NCBI GenBank assembly: GCA_023150835.1
Contig: JAKLKB010000049.1
Location: forward strand, 1 to 42,945
Length of the DNA: 42,945 nucleotides
Reading direction: 5' to 3'
Source of the DNA: Myxococcota bacterium
GTDB taxonomy: Bacteria > Myxococcota_C > UBA6777
Positions within the stretch are counted from its first letter, which is position 1; each line of letters starts with the position of its first letter. The notes beneath the pieces were generated by a model that made no database searches, had not been told where the DNA came from, and saw nothing but the letters and a program-made list of their open reading frames with translations. Positions 3,510 through 39,031 of this stretch are shown here, in pieces. The position numbers and the translations under genes are program-made.

Positions 3510-6500
3510 ATGGAAGAGATGCAGTCCTACGAACAGCTTTCAAAGACCCCCACGCAAGCCAACCGTATGCGCGAGATCTTTGGGCTGATCGCGCTAACAT
3601 TTGGCGCATTATTGTTTCTGAGCTTACTCACCTACCACCCCGAAGATCCGTGTTGGAATCTCGCAGGACACGGCGTCACACGCAACGCCGCTGGCCCTGT
3701 CGGCGCTTACGTTTCGGATATCTTTTTGCAGATGTTTGGTATCGGCGCGTATTTTATCGTTTTTTTGGCCTTTTTGTGTGCCTTGATGATGATCTTGCAG
3801 CGGCGAATCGCCTTTCGCTGGATCTCACTGGTGGGTTACGCTTGCATCGGCCTGTTGATATCGTCGTTTTTTCATCTGTGGTGGGGACATTGGGGTCCAC
3901 ATGGCTACTCGACGGGCGGCGCAGCAGGACAATGGCTTGCGACGTTGTTGGTCAGCCAGACGGGACGAGGCGGAAGCTACTTGCTTTTGACCATGATGCT
4001 CGCTCTTTCGGTCGTATGGACAACGCAGTTCTCGTTTGTGGAGACGGGTTCGCGGATCGCCGAACGGATGTCTCCGCATACAAGGCGATGGGCGCTTGGT
4101 TTTCACGAAAGGTTTTTGGATTGGCGTGACGCTTGGTATCGTTGGCGCTCTGCCAAACACGCCAACCAACGAAGAGAACGTAAGCCCGTATTTGCCGCAG
4201 CAGGTGGCGATCTGCCTGCATTGGAACTCGACCACTCTTGGCTAGATGCCGACCCTTCTTGGGCCACAAGCGATCTTGCCGCTCGTGACCGCGAAAAAGT
4301 CCTCCCCGAACTCACCCCCCCCGCTGGTGTAGACGCCTATCGCGCCGAGATATCCGCCGTCAAGATCAGTCATCCTGACTGGTCCTCTCAGGCTGCGGGT
4401 TCACCTGCCCTCGATCAAGAAAGCCCCACCAACGAAGGCACTCTCCGCCGCTTTGCCTCCACAAGCGAAAGCCCCGAAGCCACCGAGCATATCCCTCATA
4501 TCGCTATCTCGCAGCTTTCTCGTGGAAAAAGTCTTCCACAACTTAACCTCGGAACACTCGCACTGTCTGTTCCCTCCGAACGTATGGACGCCATCCTGCG
4601 CGGCTTACAAGACCACACCAATGCAGACGATCCGCCCTACGCTCTCCCTCACAACGCCCACCAAGACCACAACGCTCACCATGACTACAACTTCTATCAC
4701 GACCACCACGCCGACCGCGTCGATCGACGCACACAACCTCCCCCAAGCCACGACAAGCGGATCACCTCTCTCGAAGATCTCATCCCCATCTCTCACGCCG
4801 ACATCGAAAGCGAAGCTGATCTATCCGATGAATCCGACGAGATCCACACTCTTGATGTCGACGACCCCCGCCACCAACAAGCCCTCGCTTGGTCAAACCT
4901 CGAACCATCCCTCCCTACCAACACCTTGATCGAACAAGCCCACCCCACATCCAACGAGCAAACCTGCACCGACTGGCCCCATCGACCACTCCACGAAGAC
5001 GACCCAGAAACCACACTTCTCCACGAACCCACCCATCCGCACCCCACTTGGAACGGCACGATCCCCACGCTTGAACAACCCACAACGAACTTTTCTCTCT
5101 CTGCCCCCCAAGCGACACAACACACCATCCAAGCGACACAACACACCATCCAAGCCCCACAACCCATCGATCCTTTCGGCCTGCTGGAAGCTCAAATAAT
5201 CCTCCCTGCCGCTGCGAACGAAGCACAGCGGCCCTTCGGTACTTTGGAATCCCACCACCTCCCCTCCATCGAAAACGCCGCTCCGCTCGAAATACCCACC
5301 GCGATATCTCCCATCAGACCGATGACGATCGATCCAAGACATCAAGCCTTTTATGCCCACTCTCAAGCCTACAGCGCGGTTCCCGCCCCTCAAGCTGCGA
5401 TGACCGCTGACTTGTCTCTCGCTCCTCAATTCGAGAGTGCTGCGAATTTTTCCCGCATCCCTCAAGCGGCGATGACCGCTGACTTTTCCCCGACTTTCGA
5501 TAGAACGAGCGTACTTACTCCCTCCGTCCCCCCTCAAACCGAGACGACAGATAACGTTTCTTCTGCCGCTCTCACAGAGAGTACTTCTGACTTTTCTCCT
5601 ACGCCTCAAGCTGAACGTACCGCTGATTTTTCTCCTGCCGCTCTCACAGAGAGTACTTCTGACTTTTCTCCTGCGCCTCAAGCTGAGCGTACCGCAGACT
5701 TGACTCCTCACTCGTTTGCTTCTTCGTCTTCTTTTGCGGATGCTCCGACGCCCTCCAAACCACCCGCCTCACAAACAGCCGAATTTTCGGCCAAAGAAGT
5801 GCTTTCCCCAGACTTGGCCCAAACCAGCCAGACACCCTCCAGCCGACCCTTTGTGTTGCAACGTCAGAAACACCCGTCGCTTTCGCCGATCACGAACACC
5901 CAGACACCCTCCAGCCAACCCTCTGCGTTGCCTCCATCCACCATCCCAATCGCCCGCTCCACCGAGTCCTTGGTGAAGAAACCCACCCCATCCTTATTTG
6001 AAGAAGACGAGGATGAGATCGAAGACAGCCAAGAAGCTTATCTTTCGGAGGATTCCGAAGACATGGAAAACAGCCTCGATCTCCACCACGCAGAGAACGC
6101 AGAAAGCGTAGAAGAGAATCAAGAGGTCGATCTTTCCGATGGCTTCGATGACATGGAAGATAGCCTCGAAACGGACATCCCGAAGCGCCCTGAGTCGATC
6201 GGGCTCGCGCCCTCCTCCGCCCCGAAGGACGGACGTCCGATCGAGAATGCACCGAAACATCCTGAACCGAGGGTGATCACGCCTGTGCGTTCGGGCCTGA
6301 CGATTCTTCCCGCGCTGCGTGCAGACGCACCGTCATTTGACCCAAGTCACGGCAAATACAACATCGCCGAAGAGGCCGATGCTTCGGAGCATGATCGCGG
6401 TGCAGCCGAAGAGGCGAAAGTTTCGGCGCATACTCGTCCTGCTACACAAAGCCCCACGACTTCGATACACAACCGATTTGCGACCGAAGATGCCGAGGCT

Positions 6501-8564
6501 TCGGTGTATGATCGGGCTGCTGCGCAAGTCGCCGCTGCTGAAAAAGCCAACGCTCTCGAAAAAGCAGAGCAATTGTCGCTACAGCAGATGTTGCCTTCGT
6601 TGCCCAAAGCCCTCGACTATCCGATGGAAGAAGAAGCTCCGAAACTCCGAGGTGTTGCGCAAAGCGAACAAGCTATCGCTGCTGCCCCGATGCTCCGAGG
6701 GATCGCACAAAGTGAACAAGCCATCGCTGCTGTCCCAATGCTCCGAGGGATCGCACAAAGCGAACAAGCTATCGCTGCTGCCCCGATGCTCCGAGGGATC
6801 GCACAAAGTGAGCCGCCCATCGCTGCCGCCCAAGAGTCCGCCGCGATGCTCCGAGGCATGGCGCAAAACGAACAACCGCCCGGGATCGCCCAAGCCACCG
6901 CAGCGATGAATGGGCCGCTTGTTCAAGCCAAAGCGCGTGCGAAAAGCGGTGATGAGCTTCAACAGCAAACCAAACCTGCTTGGCGCTTGCATGGCTACCA
7001 ACATCCCTCGCTCGATCTGCTCGATTACGTCGAGCAAACGCCCGATGAAGATGACGATCTGCTGCCAGAGATCCTTGTCGAAAACGCCCGTGTACTGGAA
7101 AAAACCCTTGAGACTTTTGGGATCAAAGGCGAAGTGCAACAGATCCTGCCCGGACCTGTGATCACCATGTACGAATACCTCCCTGCCCCCGGGATCAAAG
7201 TCAGTCGCATCGCAAGCCTCGCCGACAACCTCGCGATGTCCCTCGCCGCCGTCCAAGTGCGCGTGCTTGCCCCCATCCCGGGCAAAAACTGCGTTGGCAT
7301 CGAGCTTCCCAATCGAAAACGTGAAGTCGTTTACATCAAAGAACTACTCGCAGACGAACGTTTCCAAAAGACCCAAGCCAAACTCCCCATGGCGATGGGC
7401 AAAGACACCACAGGAACCCCCTACATCGCAAACCTCGCCAAGATGCCTCACTTGTTGATCGCAGGAACCACGGGAAGCGGAAAAAGCGTCGGTGTCAACA
7501 GCATGATCGTCTCGTTGCTGTACCACGCTTCGCCCGAAGACGTGCGCTTTATCATGATCGACCCCAAGATGCTCGAACTCTCGATCTATGACGGGATCCC
7601 GCACTTGCTTTTGCCCGTCGTGACGGATGCGAAAAAAGCTGCAACCGCCCTTGCATGGGCCGTCAACGAGATGGAACGCCGTTACTCTCTGATGGCCGAG
7701 GCAGGTGTACGCAATATCAACAACTACAACGCACTCGTCGAGCAACGCAAAAAAGCCCGCGAATTTATCGAGCAACGCGAAGCAAGACTTGATGCCGCCC
7801 GTCGTGAAGCGTTGCGCGAGGACGATATCGCCGAAGAACCCGCCGAGATGGACTGGGAAAGCTCCACAGAGTACTCTCCTGATGAACTCTACCAAAGCAA
7901 CGCCCCCAAAAGTTATTACGAAAAAATGCCTTACATCGTCGTGATCATCGACGAACTGGCGGACTTGATGATGGTTGCGGCCAAAGAAGTGGAATTCAGC
8001 ATCGCACGCCTCGCACAGATGGCCCGTGCTGCGGGGATCCACTTGATGCTCGCCACACAACGCCCTTCCGTGGACGTTCTTACGGGCGTGATCAAAGCCA
8101 ACTTCCCAAGCCGCTGCGCTTTCCAACTCAAAAGCAAGATCGACTCTCGCACCATCCTTGATCAGCCCGGTGCCGAGCGGCTTCTCGGCCAAGGTGATAT
8201 GCTTCTTACTCCACCAAGCAGCAGCGCTCCCGTCCGTATCCACGGATGCTACGTCTCCGAAGAAGAAGTTCACCGCGTCGTCAACCATCTCAAAAAACAA
8301 GGAGACCCCGAATACAACGCCGAGATCCTCCCAAGCAGCGAAGGCCAAGAAGAAGGCGAAGAGTTCTCAGATGATATGTACGACAAAGCCATTGAGATCG
8401 TCGTAAAAACTCGCAATGCCTCGATATCCGCGCTCCAACGCAAGCTCCGCATCGGCTACAACCGCGCTGCCCGCATGATCGAACAAATGGCCCGTGAAGG
8501 CATCGTCGGCGAACAGATCGGCAGCAAACCCCGCGAGATCCTCGCTCCTGAAGGTGAATCTTGA
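3510..8564 (+). CDS. ftsK: DNA translocase FtsK with a very long low-complexity linker
   Basis: N-terminal 4TM domain (NAAGPVGAYVSD), motor with AGTTGSGKS, IDPKMLEL, IDELADLMM, ATQRPSVDV, and gamma domain SISALQRKLRIGYNRAARMIE; RBS aggag. Confidence 0.97.
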   Translation: MEEMQSYEQLSKTPTQANRMREIFGLIALTFGALLFLSLLTYHPEDPCWNLAGHGVTRNAAGPVGAYVSDIFLQMFGIGAYFIVFLAFLCALMMILQRRIAFRWISLVGYACIGLLISSFFHLWWGHWGPHGYSTGGAAGQWLATLLVSQTGRGGSYLLLTMMLALSVVWTTQFSFVETGSRIAERMSPHTRRWALGFHERFLDWRDAWYRWRSAKHANQRRERKPVFAAAGGDLPALELDHSWLDADPSWATSDLAARDREKVLPELTPPAGVDAYRAEISAVKISHPDWSSQAAGSPALDQESPTNEGTLRRFASTSESPEATEHIPHIAISQLSRGKSLPQLNLGTLALSVPSERMDAILRGLQDHTNADDPPYALPHNAHQDHNAHHDYNFYHDHHADRVDRRTQPPPSHDKRITSLEDLIPISHADIESEADLSDESDEIHTLDVDDPRHQQALAWSNLEPSLPTNTLIEQAHPTSNEQTCTDWPHRPLHEDDPETTLLHEPTHPHPTWNGTIPTLEQPTTNFSLSAPQATQHTIQATQHTIQAPQPIDPFGLLEAQIILPAAANEAQRPFGTLESHHLPSIENAAPLEIPTAISPIRPMTIDPRHQAFYAHSQAYSAVPAPQAAMTADLSLAPQFESAANFSRIPQAAMTADFSPTFDRTSVLTPSVPPQTETTDNVSSAALTESTSDFSPTPQAERTADFSPAALTESTSDFSPAPQAERTADLTPHSFASSSSFADAPTPSKPPASQTAEFSAKEVLSPDLAQTSQTPSSRPFVLQRQKHPSLSPITNTQTPSSQPSALPPSTIPIARSTESLVKKPTPSLFEEDEDEIEDSQEAYLSEDSEDMENSLDLHHAENAESVEENQEVDLSDGFDDMEDSLETDIPKRPESIGLAPSSAPKDGRPIENAPKHPEPRVITPVRSGLTILPALRADAPSFDPSHGKYNIAEEADASEHDRGAAEEAKVSAHTRPATQSPTTSIHNRFATEDAEASVYDRAAAQVAAAEKANALEKAEQLSLQQMLPSLPKALDYPMEEEAPKLRGVAQSEQAIAAAPMLRGIAQSEQAIAAVPMLRGIAQSEQAIAAAPMLRGIAQSEPPIAAAQESAAMLRGMAQNEQPPGIAQATAAMNGPLVQAKARAKSGDELQQQTKPAWRLHGYQHPSLDLLDYVEQTPDEDDDLLPEILVENARVLEKTLETFGIKGEVQQILPGPVITMYEYLPAPGIKVSRIASLADNLAMSLAAVQVRVLAPIPGKNCVGIELPNRKREVVYIKELLADERFQKTQAKLPMAMGKDTTGTPYIANLAKMPHLLIAGTTGSGKSVGVNSMIVSLLYHASPEDVRFIMIDPKMLELSIYDGIPHLLLPVVTDAKKAATALAWAVNEMERRYSLMAEAGVRNINNYNALVEQRKKAREFIEQREARLDAARREALREDDIAEEPAEMDWESSTEYSPDELYQSNAPKSYYEKMPYIVVIIDELADLMMVAAKEVEFSIARLAQMARAAGIHLMLATQRPSVDVLTGVIKANFPSRCAFQLKSKIDSRTILDQPGAERLLGQGDMLLTPPSSSAPVRIHGCYVSEEEVHRVVNHLKKQGDPEYNAEILPSSEGQEEGEEFSDDMYDKAIEIVVKTRNASISALQRKLRIGYNRAARMIEQMAREGIVGEQIGSKPREILAPEGES
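6636..6875 (+). repeat. 48-bp coding tandem repeat (APMLRGIAQSEQAIAA) in the FtsK linker, 4 copies plus a diverged fifth
   Basis: ctccgagg recurs at 6645, 6693, 6741, 6789 and 6849. Confidence 0.92.
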
Positions 8565-8775
8565 TTCGAGTGACGCAGTTGGAGAGATATTGTTGGCTCC
8601 CGCCTCGCCTCAGACCATCGCCCCTTCCATCCGTATTTGCCCTGCCTACTTGACCTCCTCCCGACACAACAAACCAGCCCTCATCCAAGACAAACCAAGC
8701 ACGACCGAGAAGGCATCTCCTCTTGCAAATCTCCGCTGTGCTAGATAGATATACAACGACAAAAGGAGGGTATCC

Positions 8776-10563
8776 ATGCAATGGAAGAAAGCCATCCATC
8801 TCTTGTACGTTCCAACCATGTTTTGCAATATGAGCTGCAAATACTGTTATCTTGGGGATTTGACCGAAGAGCGCGTCGATACCGAAAAAGTTAAAGAGAC
8901 GCTGCATCGGACCCTAGAGCAATTGTTAAGCAAAGGCTACCTGCCCTTCAATCTGTCTTTTCATGGCGGCGAAGTGACCACGTTGCCCACAGCAACGTTG
9001 GATGCGCTGTTTCGGATAGCAGCACAACATTACGCTACATACGAACAAGACATCCGCGCCATGGGATATCCCGTCCATCCGCTACACATCAAAACAAATC
9101 TACTCAATCTTGAGAAACACTATGATGTGCTCCAGCAACACGGCGTGTCGATCAGCGGCAGCGTCGACTTGCCACTCAGCTTACACGAGCGATTTCGGCG
9201 AGATAAACGCGACCAGAGCACCCTAGACCGTATCCGCAACAACCTCAAGCTGTTGGCGCGCTACCCTCACAACAAAAAGATATCTTGCGTCGTCACAGCA
9301 GCACACCTGCAACATCTCGACGAGTTCATCGCTGATTTGAAGATGTTGCATGACGATATCGGCCTCGATATGAGCCGATTTAACGTGATGTTCGGCTTTG
9401 ACTCCAAGCAAAACAACGACAAATTCGTCGAACGTACCGCAGGCACAGAGATGTTGTCCGACAGTCAACAACTGGCCTTCTACCGCAAAGTCAAAGCCGC
9501 CGTCGTAGGAACACCGCTGTACAACGCCTTTAAGATGGACTGGTTTAAGGAGTTCACACCAGAGTACTGCTGTTCTGCCCCCAACTGCGGCAACAAGTTC
9601 TTTTTGCTGCAAGCCAACGGCGATGTGTATTCGTGCCCTCGCGGGCAATCCTCACCGAATTACCGCTACGGCAATATTTATCAAGACGATATCGAAGCGA
9701 TTATTGCGCGAGGTTGGCAGGTGATCGAACGCAACGAAAACAGCTTAGAGATCGATGACAAGTGCCTACGTTGTGCGTACCTGCCTTATTGCAATGTGGG
9801 ATGCACCTTTGTCCGTCAAGAAGTCGGTCTCTCCAAGAGCTACACCTGCGCGCTACAGCTTGAGATATACCGCGACAACCCTGATCGCTATCGCCCCCTG
9901 CGCACCGAAGAGATCGAAGCATACAGCCGCCGCTTGCTTCTCCGAAACAATATCAAACGGCTCCAAACACCGCACCCCAAAAAGCAATCCTTTGTGACCA
10001 ACGAGTTGTTTCAAGAAGAAAATTCCCTCGCAAGCCTGATCCGCCGAGACGAAACGCTCCAACATCTCTACGCCGATGATCTGTTTTTTCTGCGGATCGG
10101 AGGTATCCAATACCCTCTGCGCTCAGCGATTTTGAAAAATGAGCGCGACATCGAGATCCTGACTCCCCGAAAAGAAGTCGTCTTGGGGATGCGAGAAGAT
10201 CTGTTTCACCTCGCTTGCGACGATGCTGTGACGAATTTCCTGATGTTGATGCTTTTGCGCGATACGACCGTGATCTACGGCGATGAGCAGCGGCGCAAAC
10301 AGGAACACGTCTTTGAACACACCATCTACTCCAACACAGTACTCGCTTCGGCGCAGCGCGAAGATCATTATGTGCTACTCGATATCGCCCCGATCCTCGG
10401 CCTCCATCGCCACGCTTATCTCGAAGGCGTGACGAACAATCTCTTTTTTACAACACGCACCTTGCGTGAATATCATTACGCAAAACACAAAAAGAATGCT
10501 TTTTACCACCTACAGGCCATCAACTTGCCTTTCCAGAATATCGAATTTGTTTGGCAACCCTAA
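8776..10563 (+). CDS. Radical SAM/SPASM-domain protein with an uncharacterised C-terminal extension
   Basis: CNMSCKYC (CxxxCxxC, 8824-8847), FHGGE, SPASM-like CCSAPNCG...GDVYSC and CLRCAYLPYCNVGC...YTC; strong RBS aggagg at 8764-8769. Confidence 0.93.
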   Translation: MQWKKAIHLLYVPTMFCNMSCKYCYLGDLTEERVDTEKVKETLHRTLEQLLSKGYLPFNLSFHGGEVTTLPTATLDALFRIAAQHYATYEQDIRAMGYPVHPLHIKTNLLNLEKHYDVLQQHGVSISGSVDLPLSLHERFRRDKRDQSTLDRIRNNLKLLARYPHNKKISCVVTAAHLQHLDEFIADLKMLHDDIGLDMSRFNVMFGFDSKQNNDKFVERTAGTEMLSDSQQLAFYRKVKAAVVGTPLYNAFKMDWFKEFTPEYCCSAPNCGNKFFLLQANGDVYSCPRGQSSPNYRYGNIYQDDIEAIIARGWQVIERNENSLEIDDKCLRCAYLPYCNVGCTFVRQEVGLSKSYTCALQLEIYRDNPDRYRPLRTEEIEAYSRRLLLRNNIKRLQTPHPKKQSFVTNELFQEENSLASLIRRDETLQHLYADDLFFLRIGGIQYPLRSAILKNERDIEILTPRKEVVLGMREDLFHLACDDAVTNFLMLMLLRDTTVIYGDEQRRKQEHVFEHTIYSNTVLASAQREDHYVLLDIAPILGLHRHAYLEGVTNNLFFTTRTLREYHYAKHKKNAFYHLQAINLPFQNIEFVWQP

Positions 10564-10575
10564 CGGAGGCTTACG

Positions 10576-11004
10576 ATGCAACAACGCTCCCGCCCCCAAA
10601 CCCAACCTGCGGATGCTCTTCAAGAGAAGTTGGGACTCTTTCTGCATCAGGCGAAAATTGATCAAGATGCAGATTTGAGCGACCAAATTCTCAGGCATCT
10701 TATGGCAAACAACCGCAACTATGTCTTGTTTCGCCACTCCTTGCTGTATTTCTTTAGCGGCGAAGAGATCAGAAACATCGAACAGACCTACGATCAATAC
10801 AAAGATCCAAACTACTGGCGTTTTGATGGAAAAAAAGTGACGAAGATCGATCCTGAATATTATTTAGGACCGACGCAATCTCGCGGATTTTGGGAGACCG
10901 AGAGCCAACAAACGGGGTGGTATGGAGCCGCCGATATCGAATACAGCAACAATAACAACAACAATAACAACAACAACGGCAACAACAACGGCAACAACGG
11001 TTAA
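10576..11004 (+). CDS. 142-aa hypothetical protein with aromatic-rich C-half and poly-Asn/Gly tail; candidate substrate or partner of the radical SAM enzyme
   Basis: RBS ggagg at 10565-10569; 12 bp after the rSAM stop and 5 bp before the next gene; ends YS-N10-G-N3-G-N2-G-stop. Confidence 0.85.
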   Translation: MQQRSRPQTQPADALQEKLGLFLHQAKIDQDADLSDQILRHLMANNRNYVLFRHSLLYFFSGEEIRNIEQTYDQYKDPNYWRFDGKKVTKIDPEYYLGPTQSRGFWETESQQTGWYGAADIEYSNNNNNNNNNNGNNNGNNG

Positions 11005-11009
11005 CTATC

Positions 11010-11732
11010 ATGACTCTTTCCATCAGAATCCTCGTGATGATCGTGCTGTCTTTTATTCTGTTGCATATCTGGATGAAGTCTCGTAAATTACGCAAAGAGA
11101 TCCGTCGTCTGCAAGAGTTGCCCCCCTTTGCAACCGATCTGCTCGACTGTTATGTTCATTTTCAGGGATACATCGCCACCCCAAACCAACACACCACCCC
11201 GATCTATCAAAAAGCTTGCGCCTTTTACATGAGCAGAATTCAGGCGAAGTGGGAAACCAAGGTCAAAAAGCCGGGCAAAGGCATGCAAACCAACACCAAG
11301 ACGCTCCACAACGAAAGCTCGCCGTCGAGCGTCATCGAACTGAGGGACGCTCAGGGACAAGAGGTTTCTGTCGATCTCAAAGAATTTGCCCCCCCGCTGC
11401 GCACCAAATCCGAGATGATGGATGTTTGTCCCGCGATTTGTGCAGAGAAAGTCGACCCCAAATACAAAAAGTACGATGTTTCGGAAAGGTGGTGCGCTCA
11501 TCAAGACAAGGTCAGCGTCTACGGCAAATTGATCCGAGACGACCAAGGGCAGTTGTGGTTAAAGCACACGGGCTACGAAAGTTATCCCGCGCTCTTTTTG
11601 ATCAGCGGACAGCAAGGACAACATCCCAAAAACCAGATATCGCTCCGACAAAAAGAAATGCCCGGAAGGTTTGGGTTTGTTTTGGTCGGTCTGATACTGT
11701 TCCTCTGTGCTGCTTCTTTCTTTATAGAGTAA
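11010..11732 (+). CDS. Membrane protein with a GIDE-like soluble domain between N- and C-terminal TM helices
   Basis: Hydrophobic termini; motifs YVHFQG, TPIYQKACAFY, IELRDAQGQEVSVD and ERWCAHQDKVSVYG resemble bacterial GIDE-domain proteins. Confidence 0.65.
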   Translation: MTLSIRILVMIVLSFILLHIWMKSRKLRKEIRRLQELPPFATDLLDCYVHFQGYIATPNQHTTPIYQKACAFYMSRIQAKWETKVKKPGKGMQTNTKTLHNESSPSSVIELRDAQGQEVSVDLKEFAPPLRTKSEMMDVCPAICAEKVDPKYKKYDVSERWCAHQDKVSVYGKLIRDDQGQLWLKHTGYESYPALFLISGQQGQHPKNQISLRQKEMPGRFGFVLVGLILFLCAASFFIE

Positions 11733-11740
11733 TCGGACTT

Positions 11741-11855
11741 AGACGATATCCGAGAGATCTGTGATCGTAGGAGAGTGCGTAAGCACACGATTCTTGGGCA
11801 GCCACGGAGGGCTGCCCCGACACCTTTGCGATAACGCAACGGGCGGATTTCGTAT
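11741..11855. repeat. Family A REP/MITE-like repeat copy
   Basis: acgatatccg ... gggcagccacggagggctgccc ... gggcggatttcgtat. Confidence 0.8.
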
Positions 11856-11891
11856 GATGCGATAGAAGTGTGCTTGAGGTGTCGGTGCATT

Positions 11892-12335
11892 TTACCCGTC
11901 ACTCCTTCGAGAAAAAGACTTTTTCCATTCCTTCTCTTGGATCAAAACAACGAAGAGAACTCCCAGCAAACAAAGGCAAAAGAGAGAGGTGTTGCGCACA
12001 AAGGAAACCGAATGCCTCAACCACAAGAGTTGGTTCACCAGAAGCAGAAGGAACACCAGCCGCACAGCAAAACGACGCACCAAACAATACAGCAGCAACA
12101 AGTAGCCCAAAGCCGTTAACAGCAGAAAAGCAGCTTGTGCGGTCGTGTGAGCGCTTTGACTGGCGAGAGATTCTGCTTGCTCTATCGTTTCCTTCGAGAC
12201 TGGTTTTTTTCCATGGGGTGTCTGCAAAGCGAAGCTTCCGGCGCGCAAAAACCCTGCCGCCCCAAAGAAGAACACAGCGGAAGAAAGGTGAACGAAAAAC
12301 AACAACACAACGATAGAGAATCCTAGAGTTTTCAT
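11892..12335 (-). CDS. Hypothetical membrane protein (about 4 hydrophobic segments)
   Basis: ATG-started 147-aa ORF with alternating hydrophobic helices; fills the gap between flanking elements; no family motif recognised. Confidence 0.5.
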   Translation of the reverse strand: MKTLGFSIVVLLFFVHLSSAVFFFGAAGFLRAGSFALQTPHGKKPVSKETIEQAESLASQSAHTTAQAAFLLLTALGYLLLLYCLVRRFAVRLVFLLLLVNQLLWLRHSVSFVRNTSLFCLCLLGVLFVVLIQEKEWKKSFSRRSDG

Positions 12336-12506
12336 CGGCTCTTCGGCGTTTTCCCCTTTCGGAAAGAGGGAGGAACAAGTGCCGTCCTTTCTTGATGTGA
12401 AGTCGGGAAAGAAAAAGATTGTGCTCGATTGTTTTTTCTAAAAAGAGAACTGGCGCAGAGGAGGACAAGACGCACAGTTCGAGGCGTTTCGAGAGGCTGC
12501 CCGAAC

Positions 12507-13040
12507 TCAACGTTTTCTAGCCTTTTCTCCAAAGAACGCATCGAATAGATCTTGGATATCCGCACCGCAACCATATCCCGCCACGCTCGCTTTCCACACG
12601 ATCTCTCGAAAGCGATCTTTCCAGACTTTCTGCGCTTCGTTGATCTCGACAAGTTGACAAGCATCCCGAAACGCAGCAACCATCGCACCGTAAAAATTGT
12701 CCTTGATGCCACCATACTGACCAACACACTCGGAGCCTTGTTCCACAAAATGCAACAACAGTTCAACAAGCCCTTCAAACGAAACGGCAACCCTTTTGTA
12801 TTGATTCACCGCCTTGCGGATGGTCGGCAGATCCAGTTTTCCAAATCCTTGGGGCGGTAAGATCTGGTTTTGAATGATCTTTTTGTACTTCGACAAAAGC
12901 TTAGCCTCATCCTCTGGGGAAGTTCTCGCTTGGTAGAACTCCTTGACATCTGGGAAGATCTTGATCAGATCGATGATCTCTTCGATCAACTGTTTTTCTG
13001 TCTTCTGGCTTAGATAGCTTCGAACGTCTCTGATTCCCAT
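12507..13040 (-). CDS. DUF6155-like helical protein
   Basis: Start re-assigned to MGIRDV (purine-rich RBS upstream); pattern KQLIEEIIDL...VKEFY...LLSKYKKII...FVEQGSE...YGGI..NFY resembles DUF6155. Confidence 0.75.
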   Translation of the reverse strand: MGIRDVRSYLSQKTEKQLIEEIIDLIKIFPDVKEFYQARTSPEDEAKLLSKYKKIIQNQILPPQGFGKLDLPTIRKAVNQYKRVAVSFEGLVELLLHFVEQGSECVGQYGGIKDNFYGAMVAAFRDACQLVEINEAQKVWKDRFREIVWKASVAGYGCGADIQDLFDAFFGEKARKR

Positions 13041-13093
13041 CTTTTGTGCCCTTCCTTTCTGCGCCCTCTGAAACCCGAGTCCAAGGATCGAGT

Positions 13094-13819
13094 ATGTCGC
13101 GTAGAGATGCCGTGTTGGTGGTCTTTTTGATCGCATTGGTGAGCTTTCTTGGTTTGCAGCGGCTGGTGGAGCGGTGCTTTTGGTACAAAGCACCTTCACA
13201 AGTGCGAGCCAAACGCGCAGCCATCGCCATTCGGGATCACGTCATCCCCTTCCAAAAATGGGGGACACGACAATTCACCCTGCCCTATCTCACGGCCTAC
13301 TACGACAAAGCATGGTACTTCACACAATCCAAGAAACACAACCACGCTTCAGCCTTTCTCGAACGACTCGACAAAGCCTTGGAGCGCTACGAAGCTGTGG
13401 ATCTCTTTCTCTTGGCGCATGGCAACCATTATTACCGATGGGTGAGCAAGATCCCTTGGCAGAAGCGCCAACGCCTGCGCTTGGTTTACAACACAGGCTG
13501 CAAAGACCTATGGCAGCGGCGTATGTGGATTGGGCTTGGAGCCAAAGCCTACATCAGCCATCCGGGAGTGAGCGCATCTCCGATCTTTTATGTTTATTTC
13601 TTGCGGCGTTGGACGTTGGGATTGCAGATCCCCGAAGCGATGGGTATCTCGAACCGTTCGATGGAAACGATCCTCCACATCGCAAGACCGATCCTGCCTG
13701 CACCGTACACTCCCGAACGTGTGTACCGCGAATCCAAGGCTTTTTGTTATGGACAATGCAACCTACACATCGATCAGCTCGACGCTTCAAGCCTCTCCCC
13801 CCCGCAGGATCGACCATGA
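13094..13819 (+). CDS. Membrane-anchored/secreted hypothetical protein with a possible clan CD (caspase-hemoglobinase fold) His-Cys dyad
   Basis: N-terminal hydrophobic helix after MSRRD; DLFLLAHG and LRLVYNTGC motifs; ATGA overlap with the next gene. Confidence 0.7.
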   Translation: MSRRDAVLVVFLIALVSFLGLQRLVERCFWYKAPSQVRAKRAAIAIRDHVIPFQKWGTRQFTLPYLTAYYDKAWYFTQSKKHNHASAFLERLDKALERYEAVDLFLLAHGNHYYRWVSKIPWQKRQRLRLVYNTGCKDLWQRRMWIGLGAKAYISHPGVSASPIFYVYFLRRWTLGLQIPEAMGISNRSMETILHIARPILPAPYTPERVYRESKAFCYGQCNLHIDQLDASSLSPPQDRP

Positions 13820-14411: not shown

Positions 14412-14624
14412 ATACGAAATCCGAACGATGTGTACACAAAGGAGAGTACGTAGACGCCCTATGATTGGGCAGACACAGGGGTCTGCCCCTACATCTTTAC
14501 GATCACATAACACGATACCCGAGCGATCTGAGATCGTACGAGAGTGCGTAGACGCCCTATGATTGGGCAGACACAGGGGTCTGCCCCTACATCCTTACGA
14601 TCATACAACGGGCGGATTTCGTAT
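14412..14624. repeat. Family A element with an internally duplicated core
   Basis: Perfect TIR atacgaaatccg / cggatttcgtat; two identical cgtagacgccctatgattgggcagacacaggggtctgcccctacatc cores. Confidence 0.9.
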
Positions 14625-19978: not shown

Positions 19979-20393
19979 ATACGAGATCCGCCCGTTGTAT
20001 GATCGTAAAGAGGTAGGGGCAGACAGGTGTGGCTGCCCAAGAATCGGGCGTCTACGCACTCTCCTTTGTGTACACATCGTTCGGATTTCGTATGATACGA
20101 AATCCGCCCCTTGTGTGATCGTAAAACGTAGGGGCAGACAGGTGTGGCTGCCCAAGAATAGGGCGGTTCGCGAACCGCCCCTACATCATGCGATCATACA
20201 TTACGCGGAGATCGTATAAATACGAGTTGACAGAGAGTCCATGACAGACAACCGAAGGAAGTCTCGCTCTTCGTGTGATACGAGATCCGCCCGTTGTGTG
20301 ATCGTAAGGATGTAGGGGCAGACCCCTGTGTCTGCCCGATCATAGGGCGTCTACGTACTCTCCTTTGCTGTGTACATCACTCGGATATCGTGT
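19979..20393. repeat. Cluster of three family A elements (19979-20093, 20095-20217, 20278-20393) in reverse orientation
   Basis: Each starts atacga(g/a)atccgccc and ends cgga..tcgt; each carries a gtaggggcagac...ctgccc hairpin. Confidence 0.9.
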
Positions 20394-38758: not shown

Positions 38759-39031
38759 TCGGCGCGATCTCTTCACAAACCCCCGTGTTCGCGCCTGTTC
38801 AAGCGGCGCAGCCGTTGGTTTGAAACACGCTTGTTCGCTCCGCCGACACGGGGTCAAGGGGACGCAGTTCCCTTGTGGGGCGTGGGGTGACACCCCAAAA
38901 CATTGCTCCGACACTCATACGATATCCGAGCGACGTACACACAAAGGAGAGCACGTAGACGCCCGATTGTTGGGCAGCCACACCTGTCTGCCCCTACATC
39001 TTTGCAATAACGCAGCGGGCGGATTTCGTAC
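38759..39031. repeat. Adjacent family B (38759-38911, reverse) and family A (38917-39031) elements
   Basis: Same cores as other copies; atacgatatccg / cggatttcgtac TIR on the A copy. Confidence 0.88.

Follow-up and report, generated by a model that had tools for sequence, protein, structure and literature searches.

A conserved cassette of a radical SAM/SPASM enzyme, a predicted poly-asparagine-tailed protein substrate and a GIDE-like membrane protein in Myxococcota and other bacteria

Radical S-adenosylmethionine (SAM) enzymes with a SPASM domain are a major source of novel chemistry in peptides and proteins and, to our knowledge, every new pairing of such an enzyme with a substrate has so far given a new bond type. 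The SPASM enzymes PqqE and MftC work on the C-terminal portion of a small precursor, and anSME, the anaerobic sulfatase-maturating enzyme, acts at a C-beta position, as do DynA and PapB. Some cross-linking members abstract hydrogen from the C-beta of asparagine (Asn), with Trp-Asn links in the case of DynA and Cys-Asn links in that of NxxcB. Where two auxiliary clusters are present, they usually serve to take up an electron. A protein-sized substrate is modified by the SPASM enzyme CrpC of Methanococcus voltae, for which the substrate CrpA is encoded in the same cluster; in the excerpt of the source used here, CrpC has a predicted RiPP recognition element (RRE; RiPP, peptide made on ribosomes and then modified post-translationally) and forms thioether (ranthionine) links on a protein rich in Cys (PMC13692751). 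Membrane proteins of the BAM/GIDE family also occur in prokaryotes, where they are described as having no RING domain and no known function in the excerpted text of PMC4457424. Here we describe a cassette of three genes, A, B and C, which joins a radical SAM/SPASM enzyme to a protein with a poly-Asn tail and a GIDE-like membrane protein. It lies at positions 8776–11732 of contig JAKLKB010000049.1 from a Myxococcota bacterium (assembly GCA_023150835.1), which was analysed as a stretch of 42,945 nucleotides (hereafter, the window).

The cassette is a real, conserved and rare module of enzyme, predicted substrate and membrane partner within radical SAM/SPASM protein maturation. B is most likely the substrate of A, and A most likely modifies the Asn run in which B ends. 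In the reading that we prefer, with a probability of roughly 0.6, the three genes form a protein-maturation module in which A docks B, threads its tail and abstracts hydrogen from Asn, and the matured B works with C. The module looks like one for the maturation of a cell-retained protein and not like a classical exported RiPP, because no protease, exporter or RRE is conserved with it. The features of the cassette are as follows.

8776–10563, + strand: gene A, radical SAM/SPASM enzyme of 595 amino acids (open reading frame (ORF) list; Pfam and NCBIfam matches; more than 120 full-length homologues, 48–94% identity)
8824–8847, + strand: CX3CX2C motif of A (C17, C21, C24) for the 4Fe-4S cluster that binds SAM, without variation in 39 of 39 homologues
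9568–9849, + strand: SPASM region of A for two auxiliary clusters (C265/C266, C271, C287, C330, C333, C339, C343, C358), all Cys invariant
9808–10560, + strand: C-terminal domain of A (residues 345–595), helical linker and beta-sandwich, predicted docking site for B
10576–11004, + strand: gene B, poly-Asn-tailed protein of 142 amino acids, predicted substrate (ORF list, alignments, complex model)
10621–10872, + strand: N-domain of B (residues 16–99), predicted docking handle, with the motifs YVLFRHSSLYFF and RFDGxKxTRIDPEYYLGP (alignments, model contacts)
10873–10947, + strand: variable linker of B (residues 100–124), differing in length and sequence among homologues
10948–11001, + strand: poly-Asn tail of B, N10-G-N3-G-N2-G (residues 125–142), predicted modification site
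11010–11732, + strand: gene C, membrane protein of 240 amino acids with a transmembrane (TM) helix, an OB-like (oligonucleotide/oligosaccharide-binding-like) GIDE/BAM domain and a second TM helix

In a scan of metagenome contigs, the alignment of A picked out 30 loci. A poly-Asn-tailed ORF adjoins the A homologue at 25 of them and a C homologue is present at 21, so that homologues of the enzyme do co-occur with a small Asn-tailed gene, as a first-pass annotation made from the bare sequence had anticipated. Among the five loci where B is missing, the contig stops short on the relevant side in four (L022, L023, L030 and L032); the fifth, L026, is weighed below. The gene order is A-B-C, with B-C-A found in L029, L034 and L030 (B cut off in the last). 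Across 17 non-redundant loci the distance matrices of A, B and C are correlated (Spearman 0.84, 0.79 and 0.77, with 0 of 2000 permutations as high), and the three proteins therefore diverge together, which denotes joint inheritance and nothing more, the related loci not being independent.

Little else recurs around these genes. Clustering of the ORFs of the 30 loci returned no other cluster in more than three loci, barring other-frame ORFs within the cassette, and among 102 flanking proteins scanned with Pfam every family was limited to two proteins at most; the cassette therefore has no protease, exporter, RRE protein or defence gene as a constant companion. The flanks are mostly housekeeping genes (HisG, PGK, TIM, EPSP synthase, DNA ligase). 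No sulfatase is present among the 25 of 125 Pfam families listed for the flanking proteins or in the flanks within the window, and accessory genes of the pyrroloquinoline quinone (PQQ) or mycofactocin type are not conserved, with only A, B and C recurring across loci. Neither A, B nor C matches a PqqD/RRE family in Pfam or NCBIfam. The lack of a sulfatase or PqqD/RRE gene that had been noted at first inspection is thus upheld by the scans of cassette and flanks.

Homologues of A of about 600 residues and 48–67% identity were found in cable bacteria (Electrothrix, Electronema), Thioflexithrix, Thiothrix, Methylococcales, Psychromonas, Pseudoalteromonas, Aliikangiella, Thalassotalea, Campylobacterota and Myxococcales. 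Their distribution over Myxococcota, Desulfobulbia, Gammaproteobacteria and Campylobacterota is patchy. A profile of the C-terminal domain of A has matches in only two of 401 genomes, namely that of the window and one of the same genus, and a search of genome contigs with a single protein recovered solely a near-identical Myxococcota contig (94% protein identity). The cassette is a self-contained, rare and horizontally spread three-gene unit.

The C-terminus of B is NNNNNNNNNNGNNNGNNG, which corresponds to N10-G-N3-G-N2-G and agrees exactly with the ending first described for this 142-residue protein. In its 7.56-Mb genome (about 55% G+C), runs of at least five Asn occur in five of the 86,401 open frames with a length of 50 amino acids or more, and a run of at least seven occurs in B alone; the tail is no chance or compositional feature of the genome. 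The Asn run and the G-N(2–4)-G that follows it are invariant in 23 B homologues of 34–82% identity. A profile of the N-domain only, with the tail removed, was run against 1.84 billion representatives and matched 67 proteins, of which 54 end in a run of at least five Asn. The terminal residue of these 54 is G (50 proteins), W (two) or S (two). The other 13 comprise two proteins with tails of N3–4, four that stop before the position of the tail, four long repetitive proteins with fragmentary matches, one (P0155) that continues into C-like sequence and two without a tail. The tail codons are interspersed (AAC 165, AAT 193) on contigs of 24–66% G+C, in runs of 6 to 28 Asn; it is therefore the amino acid, and not a DNA repeat, that is under selection. 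P0155, of 170 amino acids, has a B-like start followed by C-like sequence (…GLIDCYVKVNG…), and may be a B-C fusion or a frameshift within the run of Asn codons.

The N-domain of B itself belongs to no Pfam family, the closest being Hemopexin with E of at least 0.0066 in four of 23 members. No relative was found in the PDB (best E 0.0017 over 41 residues), and nothing scored above 0.84 in Atlas. An aromatic residue just upstream of the tail was considered as a universal cyclophane partner and discarded, since none is nearby in L018, L024, L028 and L035.

Distant homologues of A keep its private C-terminal domain yet adjoin Asn-tailed proteins that are unrelated to B. In L042 (4992–8130, an IMG/VR contig), which represents a second type of cassette, an enzyme at 41% identity is followed by a 128-residue protein whose end consists of an S/G-rich stretch, N14 and R, and then by a membrane protein of 333 residues that contains zinc ribbons and, centrally, two hydrophobic segments; by hhalign the small protein is not homologous to B, nor the membrane protein to C. 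B-like proteins with signal-peptide-like N-termini and the tails N7-W and N6-W are encoded in L031 (2942–3280) and L033 (3863–4177). The C-terminal Asn run is what these neighbourhoods have in common, as one would predict were the run the part that the enzyme recognises and modifies.

Several further observations were made at such loci. Public metagenomes are very rich in close relatives of the L042 enzyme, which form clusters of 8618, 1867 and 951 member sequences. The small proteins of L031 and L033 have a Cys a few residues before the Asn run, unrelated proteins of 250–307 amino acids stand in place of C, and a TraG/TraD-like coupling protein near the cassette in L031 suggests carriage on a conjugative element. 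In L032 (2093–2837), two small ORFs after the enzyme resemble by eye a toxin-antitoxin pair with a helix-turn-helix antitoxin. A full-length enzyme homologue (33% identity over 98% of the query) is encoded on a Campylobacter coli plasmid (L043, NZ_CP082878.1, 3307–6743), and also in Campylobacter phage CAM-P21 (MW462221.2, 28068–29795). This enzyme has the same C-terminal domain and lies in a phage tail module, two genes after a tail-collar fibre protein that ends in ...STNNNNY, a four-residue run from a single lineage that could be due to chance. No homology of this fibre protein to the B profile was detected with hhalign.

Gene A encodes a bona fide radical SAM/SPASM enzyme. It passes the cut-offs of Pfam Radical_SAM (PF04055; 38.9 bits versus 29.5) and of the SPASM domain model TIGR04085 (44.9 bits versus 27), and stays under that of Pfam SPASM (PF13186; 17.2 bits versus 21.5). 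The SPASM region contains CX9-15GX4C at residue 266 and CX2CX5CX3C at residue 330, which together with C358 make up the full Cys set; the motif scan, Pfam and TIGR04085 accordingly bear out the 595-residue enzyme with CxxxCxxC and complete SPASM cysteines of the first-pass annotation. There is no N-terminal RRE, since the CX3CX2C motif begins at residue 17 and leaves no room for one. Classification against the TIGRFAM and NCBIfam models, which had been proposed as a check, placed A under the equivalog cut-off of every named family: DynA (NF041298; 95 bits, cut-off 450), anSME (TIGR03942; 93.7 bits, cut-off 349.45), PapB (74 bits, cut-off 340), DarE (NF038005; 55.6 bits, cut-off 650), and GrrM, HxsB and CefB (62.6, 62 and 31.9 bits, each under its own cut-off). 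The closest solved relative by sequence is anSME, at E 5.9e-17 with the family profile.

The C-terminal extension of about 245 residues is as conserved as the catalytic core. Its AlphaFold2 (AF2) model, with a predicted local distance difference test score (pLDDT) of 82, is a beta-sandwich and not a winged helix. The domain has no match in Pfam or NCBIfam and, by Foldseek, nothing in the PDB at E of 0.001 or less; VIA-align returned generic immunoglobulin-like sandwiches only (Z up to 6.7), with no functional lead. The invariant Cys171, which is not a cluster ligand, was entertained as a hydrogen donor for epimerisation and dropped, as anSME has a Cys at the aligned position.

The A-B pair was submitted to complex prediction with each partner supplied as an alignment, the two alignments unpaired, in three runs and with three controls. 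The interface confidence score ipSAE was 0.34, 0.85 and 0.87 (median 0.85) for the pair, against 0.00 for the best of the controls; the corresponding mark had been reached by 58 of 80 solved complexes and by 2 of 110 mismatched pairs. Contact agreement among the runs was at least 37% and the partner pLDDT at least 59. In the best run, residues 86–95 of B (KVTKIDPEYY, its most conserved motif) strand-pair with residues 455–461 in the sandwich of A, and tail residues 125–135 touch residues 8, 10, 59–63, 104–106, 127, 170, 203–205, 259–275 and 287–289 of A, all in the barrel and the first SPASM stretch. The pocket so formed includes His8, His63, His104, Lys106, Ser61, Ser127, Ser170, Asn203, Glu259 and Arg289. 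The AlphaFold-type prediction that had been suggested for the pair thus places the tail in the predicted active site. Along with the genetic linkage and the lack of any family cut-off reached, this model supports the earlier proposal that the 142-residue protein may be a substrate of a class that matches no described RiPP.

The AF2 model of C (pLDDT 89) consists of a helix at residues 2–35, strands between 48 and 199, and helices at 206–239, and the hydropathy peaks (window starts at residues 1–7 and 216–222) mark a hydrophobic segment at each end. This is the GIDE/BAM architecture, in which a beta-rich domain lies between two TM helices. In Atlas, C scores 0.95 with 210 shared features, and GIDE clusters account for 26 of the 30 matches. 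The Pfam model PF12483 (GIDE) matches four of 20 C relatives, with a best E of 4.8e-5, and does not match the copy in the window. The first description of C as a GIDE-like protein with two TM helices therefore holds as to topology, Atlas match and some of the relatives, but the window's own protein has no PF12483 match to support it. Foldseek yields weak rows for OB-folds at E of about 2e-3 (MCM N-domain, RPA, LysRS); the VIA-align matches are mostly helical hairpins, and OB domains of AspRS and AsnRS, at Z 7.2–7.7, do not stand above background. In the literature, no reported link was found between the GIDE/BAM family and a radical SAM enzyme, and a search on GIDE gave only a paper on MAPL evolution.

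The first TM helix of C is followed by a K/R-rich stretch, KSRKLRKEIRR. By the positive-inside rule, the soluble domain most likely faces the cytoplasm because of this run, as predicted from the sequence. A cytoplasmic domain favours anchoring or docking over export, so that of the three functions initially put forward for the membrane protein (export, immunity or anchoring), the K/R run would speak for the last and against the first.

The following mechanism is proposed. The C-terminal beta-sandwich of A would dock the folded N-domain of B via strand pairing with the ...RIDPEYYLGP segment, and the flexible linker of B would let the poly-Asn/Gly tail enter the part of the barrel that lies between the SAM and SPASM clusters, where the 5'-deoxyadenosyl radical would abstract hydrogen from Asn, probably at several positions along the run. 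The product would stay in the cell, where C may hold its OB-like GIDE/BAM domain at the cytoplasmic face of the membrane and receive or anchor the matured B.

As to the product, oxidative C-beta-centred chemistry, giving cross-links or dehydro residues within the tail, is tentatively preferred because the two-cluster SPASM region and the nearest relatives (anSME, DynA and PapB) fit it. L-to-D epimerisation of the tail is rather unlikely, and some other chemistry on the tail is a possibility to be taken seriously. It is conceivable, though we hold this loosely, that the cassette represents a dedicated poly-Asn tail system with a private docking domain, a radical chemistry undescribed for any protein, and a logic of tag plus enzyme that is reused on unrelated proteins. 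Such chemistry might consist, for instance, of several cross-links of the Asn-Asn or Asn-backbone type, or of D- and L-Asn in alternation. Were this so, the Asn run would become a rigid or protease-proof polyamide appendage, carried by small cytoplasmic proteins with membrane partners, by secreted proteins of conjugative elements and possibly by the tip of a phage tail fibre.

A number of points weigh against the maturation module as we have set it out. The pure Asn/Gly tail has no obvious radical acceptor, neither a thiol nor an aromatic ring, and the chemistry is therefore not readable from precedent. The complex score is a model confidence obtained with unpaired alignments, and one of the three runs fell to 0.34. 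The residues in contact with the tail are invariant in 18 of 26 cases, as compared with 120 of 595 for A overall (39 homologues), but this is no proof of tail binding, since conservation of the active site is general among enzyme families. The docking strand of A (residues 455–461) is moderately conserved, with the commonest residue present in 10–26 of 39 sequences. Two full-length relatives of B, P0164 and P0179, have no tail, and L026, which has informative flanks on both sides, is an orphan enzyme with neither B nor C. The evidence on the role of C consists solely of adjacency and co-divergence. Lastly, the contigs from RNA libraries that cover the cassette (see below) come from one study and may contain DNA. 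The surroundings of the orphan enzyme (L026, 2564–2998) comprise a thioredoxin gene before it and a membrane HD-domain protein after it.

Four other explanations were considered. A classical exported RiPP, for which B would be a long-leader precursor whose Asn-rich core is cleaved and exported and C an export or immunity protein, is improbable. Although a radical SAM/SPASM gene beside a small gene with a conserved C-terminal core is the RiPP pattern, and the best NCBIfam matches of A are peptide maturases (DynA, PapB and GrrM among them), the flanking proteins contain no conserved protease, ABC exporter or RRE. Signal-peptide-like N-termini are seen in the L031 and L033 variants, whereas canonical B has no hydrophobic segment. 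C, for its part, has two TM helices only and a K/R run that would put its domain in the cytoplasm, and the length of the tail ranges from 6 to 28 Asn.

It is similarly hard to credit a peptide-derived cofactor or small molecule, made in the manner of PQQ (PqqA/PqqE) or mycofactocin (MftA/MftC), in which only the ...N-G end of the tail is converted. No tailoring enzyme, peptidase or chaperone co-occurs, the long and variable Asn run would be superfluous, and presence in two of 401 genomes is unlike a core cofactor. The terminal G of 50 of the 54 tailed relatives would suit such a conversion, the precedent of PqqE and MftC exists and an exporter would be unneeded; however, the tail is found also on an unrelated protein, where the final residue is R, and possibly on a phage fibre, where it is Y.

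A conflict or defence module, with B as a sensor or pro-effector set by A and C as a membrane-damaging effector, is a further reading to which we give little credence. The name GIDE stands for 'growth inhibition and death', the cassette is rare and patchily distributed, and its variants are located beside a TraG/TraD-like protein of a putative conjugative element and in a Campylobacter prophage, with the toxin-antitoxin-like pair after A in L032 as an additional hint. Against this, PADLOC-DB 2.0 gave weak generic matches of A to viperin-type (pVip) models (E 1.2e-6, 26 bits) and no match of B or C to any defence-system model, and the flanks are housekeeping genes. The prokaryotic BAM/GIDE proteins, having no RING domain, are of open function in the excerpt cited above (PMC4457424). 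Least credible of all is that the Asn run is not a substrate, with A acting elsewhere: a gap of 5 nt separates the run from the start of C, a gene that lacks its own Shine-Dalgarno sequence, as would suit a coupling of the translation of C to Asn-tRNA supply, and Asn runs drive aggregation, as would suit a self-associating polar zipper, but the G-N(2–4)-G ending and terminal residue are conserved at the protein level, the tail is kept in the B-C-A order of L029 and L034 and recurs on unrelated proteins beside homologous enzymes, and the model puts it in the predicted active site.

All three genes of the cassette lie on the + strand, with intergenic gaps of 12 nt (A-B) and 5 nt (B-C). AAGGAGG is found 6 nt 5' of the ATG of A and GGAGG 6 nt 5' of that of B, in keeping with the strong ribosome-binding sites first attributed to these two genes; C has no clear Shine-Dalgarno sequence. 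The 5' neighbour is an FtsK-like ORF of 1684 amino acids (3510–8564), and a repeat of about 120 bp, termed family A, lies immediately 3' at about 11740–11865. The ORF list and genome-wide blastn agree with the initial picture of three co-oriented genes between ftsK and this repeat. Across the 7.56-Mb genome, blastn yields 597 matches to family A, with a per-base coverage of up to about 580 copies; a repeat search confined to window positions 11600–13300 found none, and the family is visible only genome-wide. A promoter and terminator scan of 8400–12300 gave counts not above those of shuffled sequences (2 versus 2.8 and 7 versus 5.2).

Contigs assembled from RNA-seq data (four libraries from one activated-sludge sample) cover the entire cassette with 0 differences, and contig X1 corresponds to 8731–11772, its 3' break falling at the family A repeat. 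This coverage is a hint of expression, as DNA carry-over is possible and contigs do not define transcripts.

Other features of the surroundings were recorded. By reading of the translation, the FtsK-like ORF has a very long low-complexity linker and, near its end, four tandem units of type (A)PMLRGIAQSEQAIAA. Additional family A copies in the window are at 1845–1904, 14512–14624, 19979–20091, 20278–20391 and 38913–39030, and the repeat accounts for assembly breaks and for a depth spike of contigs. A DUF6155 protein (Pfam 41.1 bits, cut-off 27) is encoded 3' of the cassette at 12507–13199 on the – strand, and its gene is not kept beside the cassette at other loci.

No paper that joins a radical SAM/SPASM enzyme with poly-Asn was found in the full-text literature, where family tables in the supplements of RiPP and radical SAM atlases could list the cluster. 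The predicted substrate is unusually clean, a homopolymeric Asn run punctuated by conserved Gly and devoid of a thiol or aromatic partner, so that the product is not foreseeable from known cross-linking precedents. With three genes and a predicted RRE-free mode of docking, the system is directly testable. If one enzyme clade serves Asn tails on unrelated proteins, the tail would be of practical value as a portable tag for modification. The cassette would also, for the first time, put a prokaryotic member of the BAM/GIDE proteins into a functional context, a group whose role is left open in the excerpt of PMC4457424.

In its logic the system follows the radical SAM/SPASM maturases whose genes are found together with those of their substrates. 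Among described systems, anSME (TIGR03942; PDB codes: 4K36–4K39) resembles A in having no N-terminal RRE, a CX3CX2C motif near the N-terminus and a full SPASM set, and in acting on a protein and not on a short exported peptide, as is predicted for A. In comparison to anSME, A is elaborated with the extra C-terminal domain of about 245 residues. After the aligned Cys (C287), A has a Pro where the HMMER alignment gives Asp for anSME, an Asp that we take to be the catalytic base of that enzyme. The predicted target also differs, being an Asn run in place of the Cys/Ser-x-Pro-x-Arg motif. The cross-linkers of the DynA/DarE and PapB/NxxcB types are the best NCBIfam matches of A, far under their cut-offs of 340–650 bits, and their substrates are short peptides with an aromatic or thiol partner, whereas the tail of canonical B contains Asn and Gly only. 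CrpC and CrpA, as described in the excerpt of PMC13692751, differ from the present pair in that A is without an RRE and the tail of B without Cys. C shares the order of TM helix, beta domain and TM helix with the GIDE/BAM proteins (PF12483; MUL1/MAPL), and is distinguished from MUL1/MAPL by having no RING domain. A repetitive target beside a dedicated radical SAM/SPASM enzyme, as seen here, is known from GrrM/OscB (Gly-rich), HxsB/HxsC (His-Xaa-Ser) and CefB (Cys at every fifth position); in contrast to these, the present cassette has a homopolymeric Asn tail on a folded domain of 100 residues and a membrane partner of the BAM/GIDE type. What is new relative to the known radical SAM/SPASM maturases is thus the combination of a homopolymeric Asn target, a docking domain other than an RRE and a BAM/GIDE partner.

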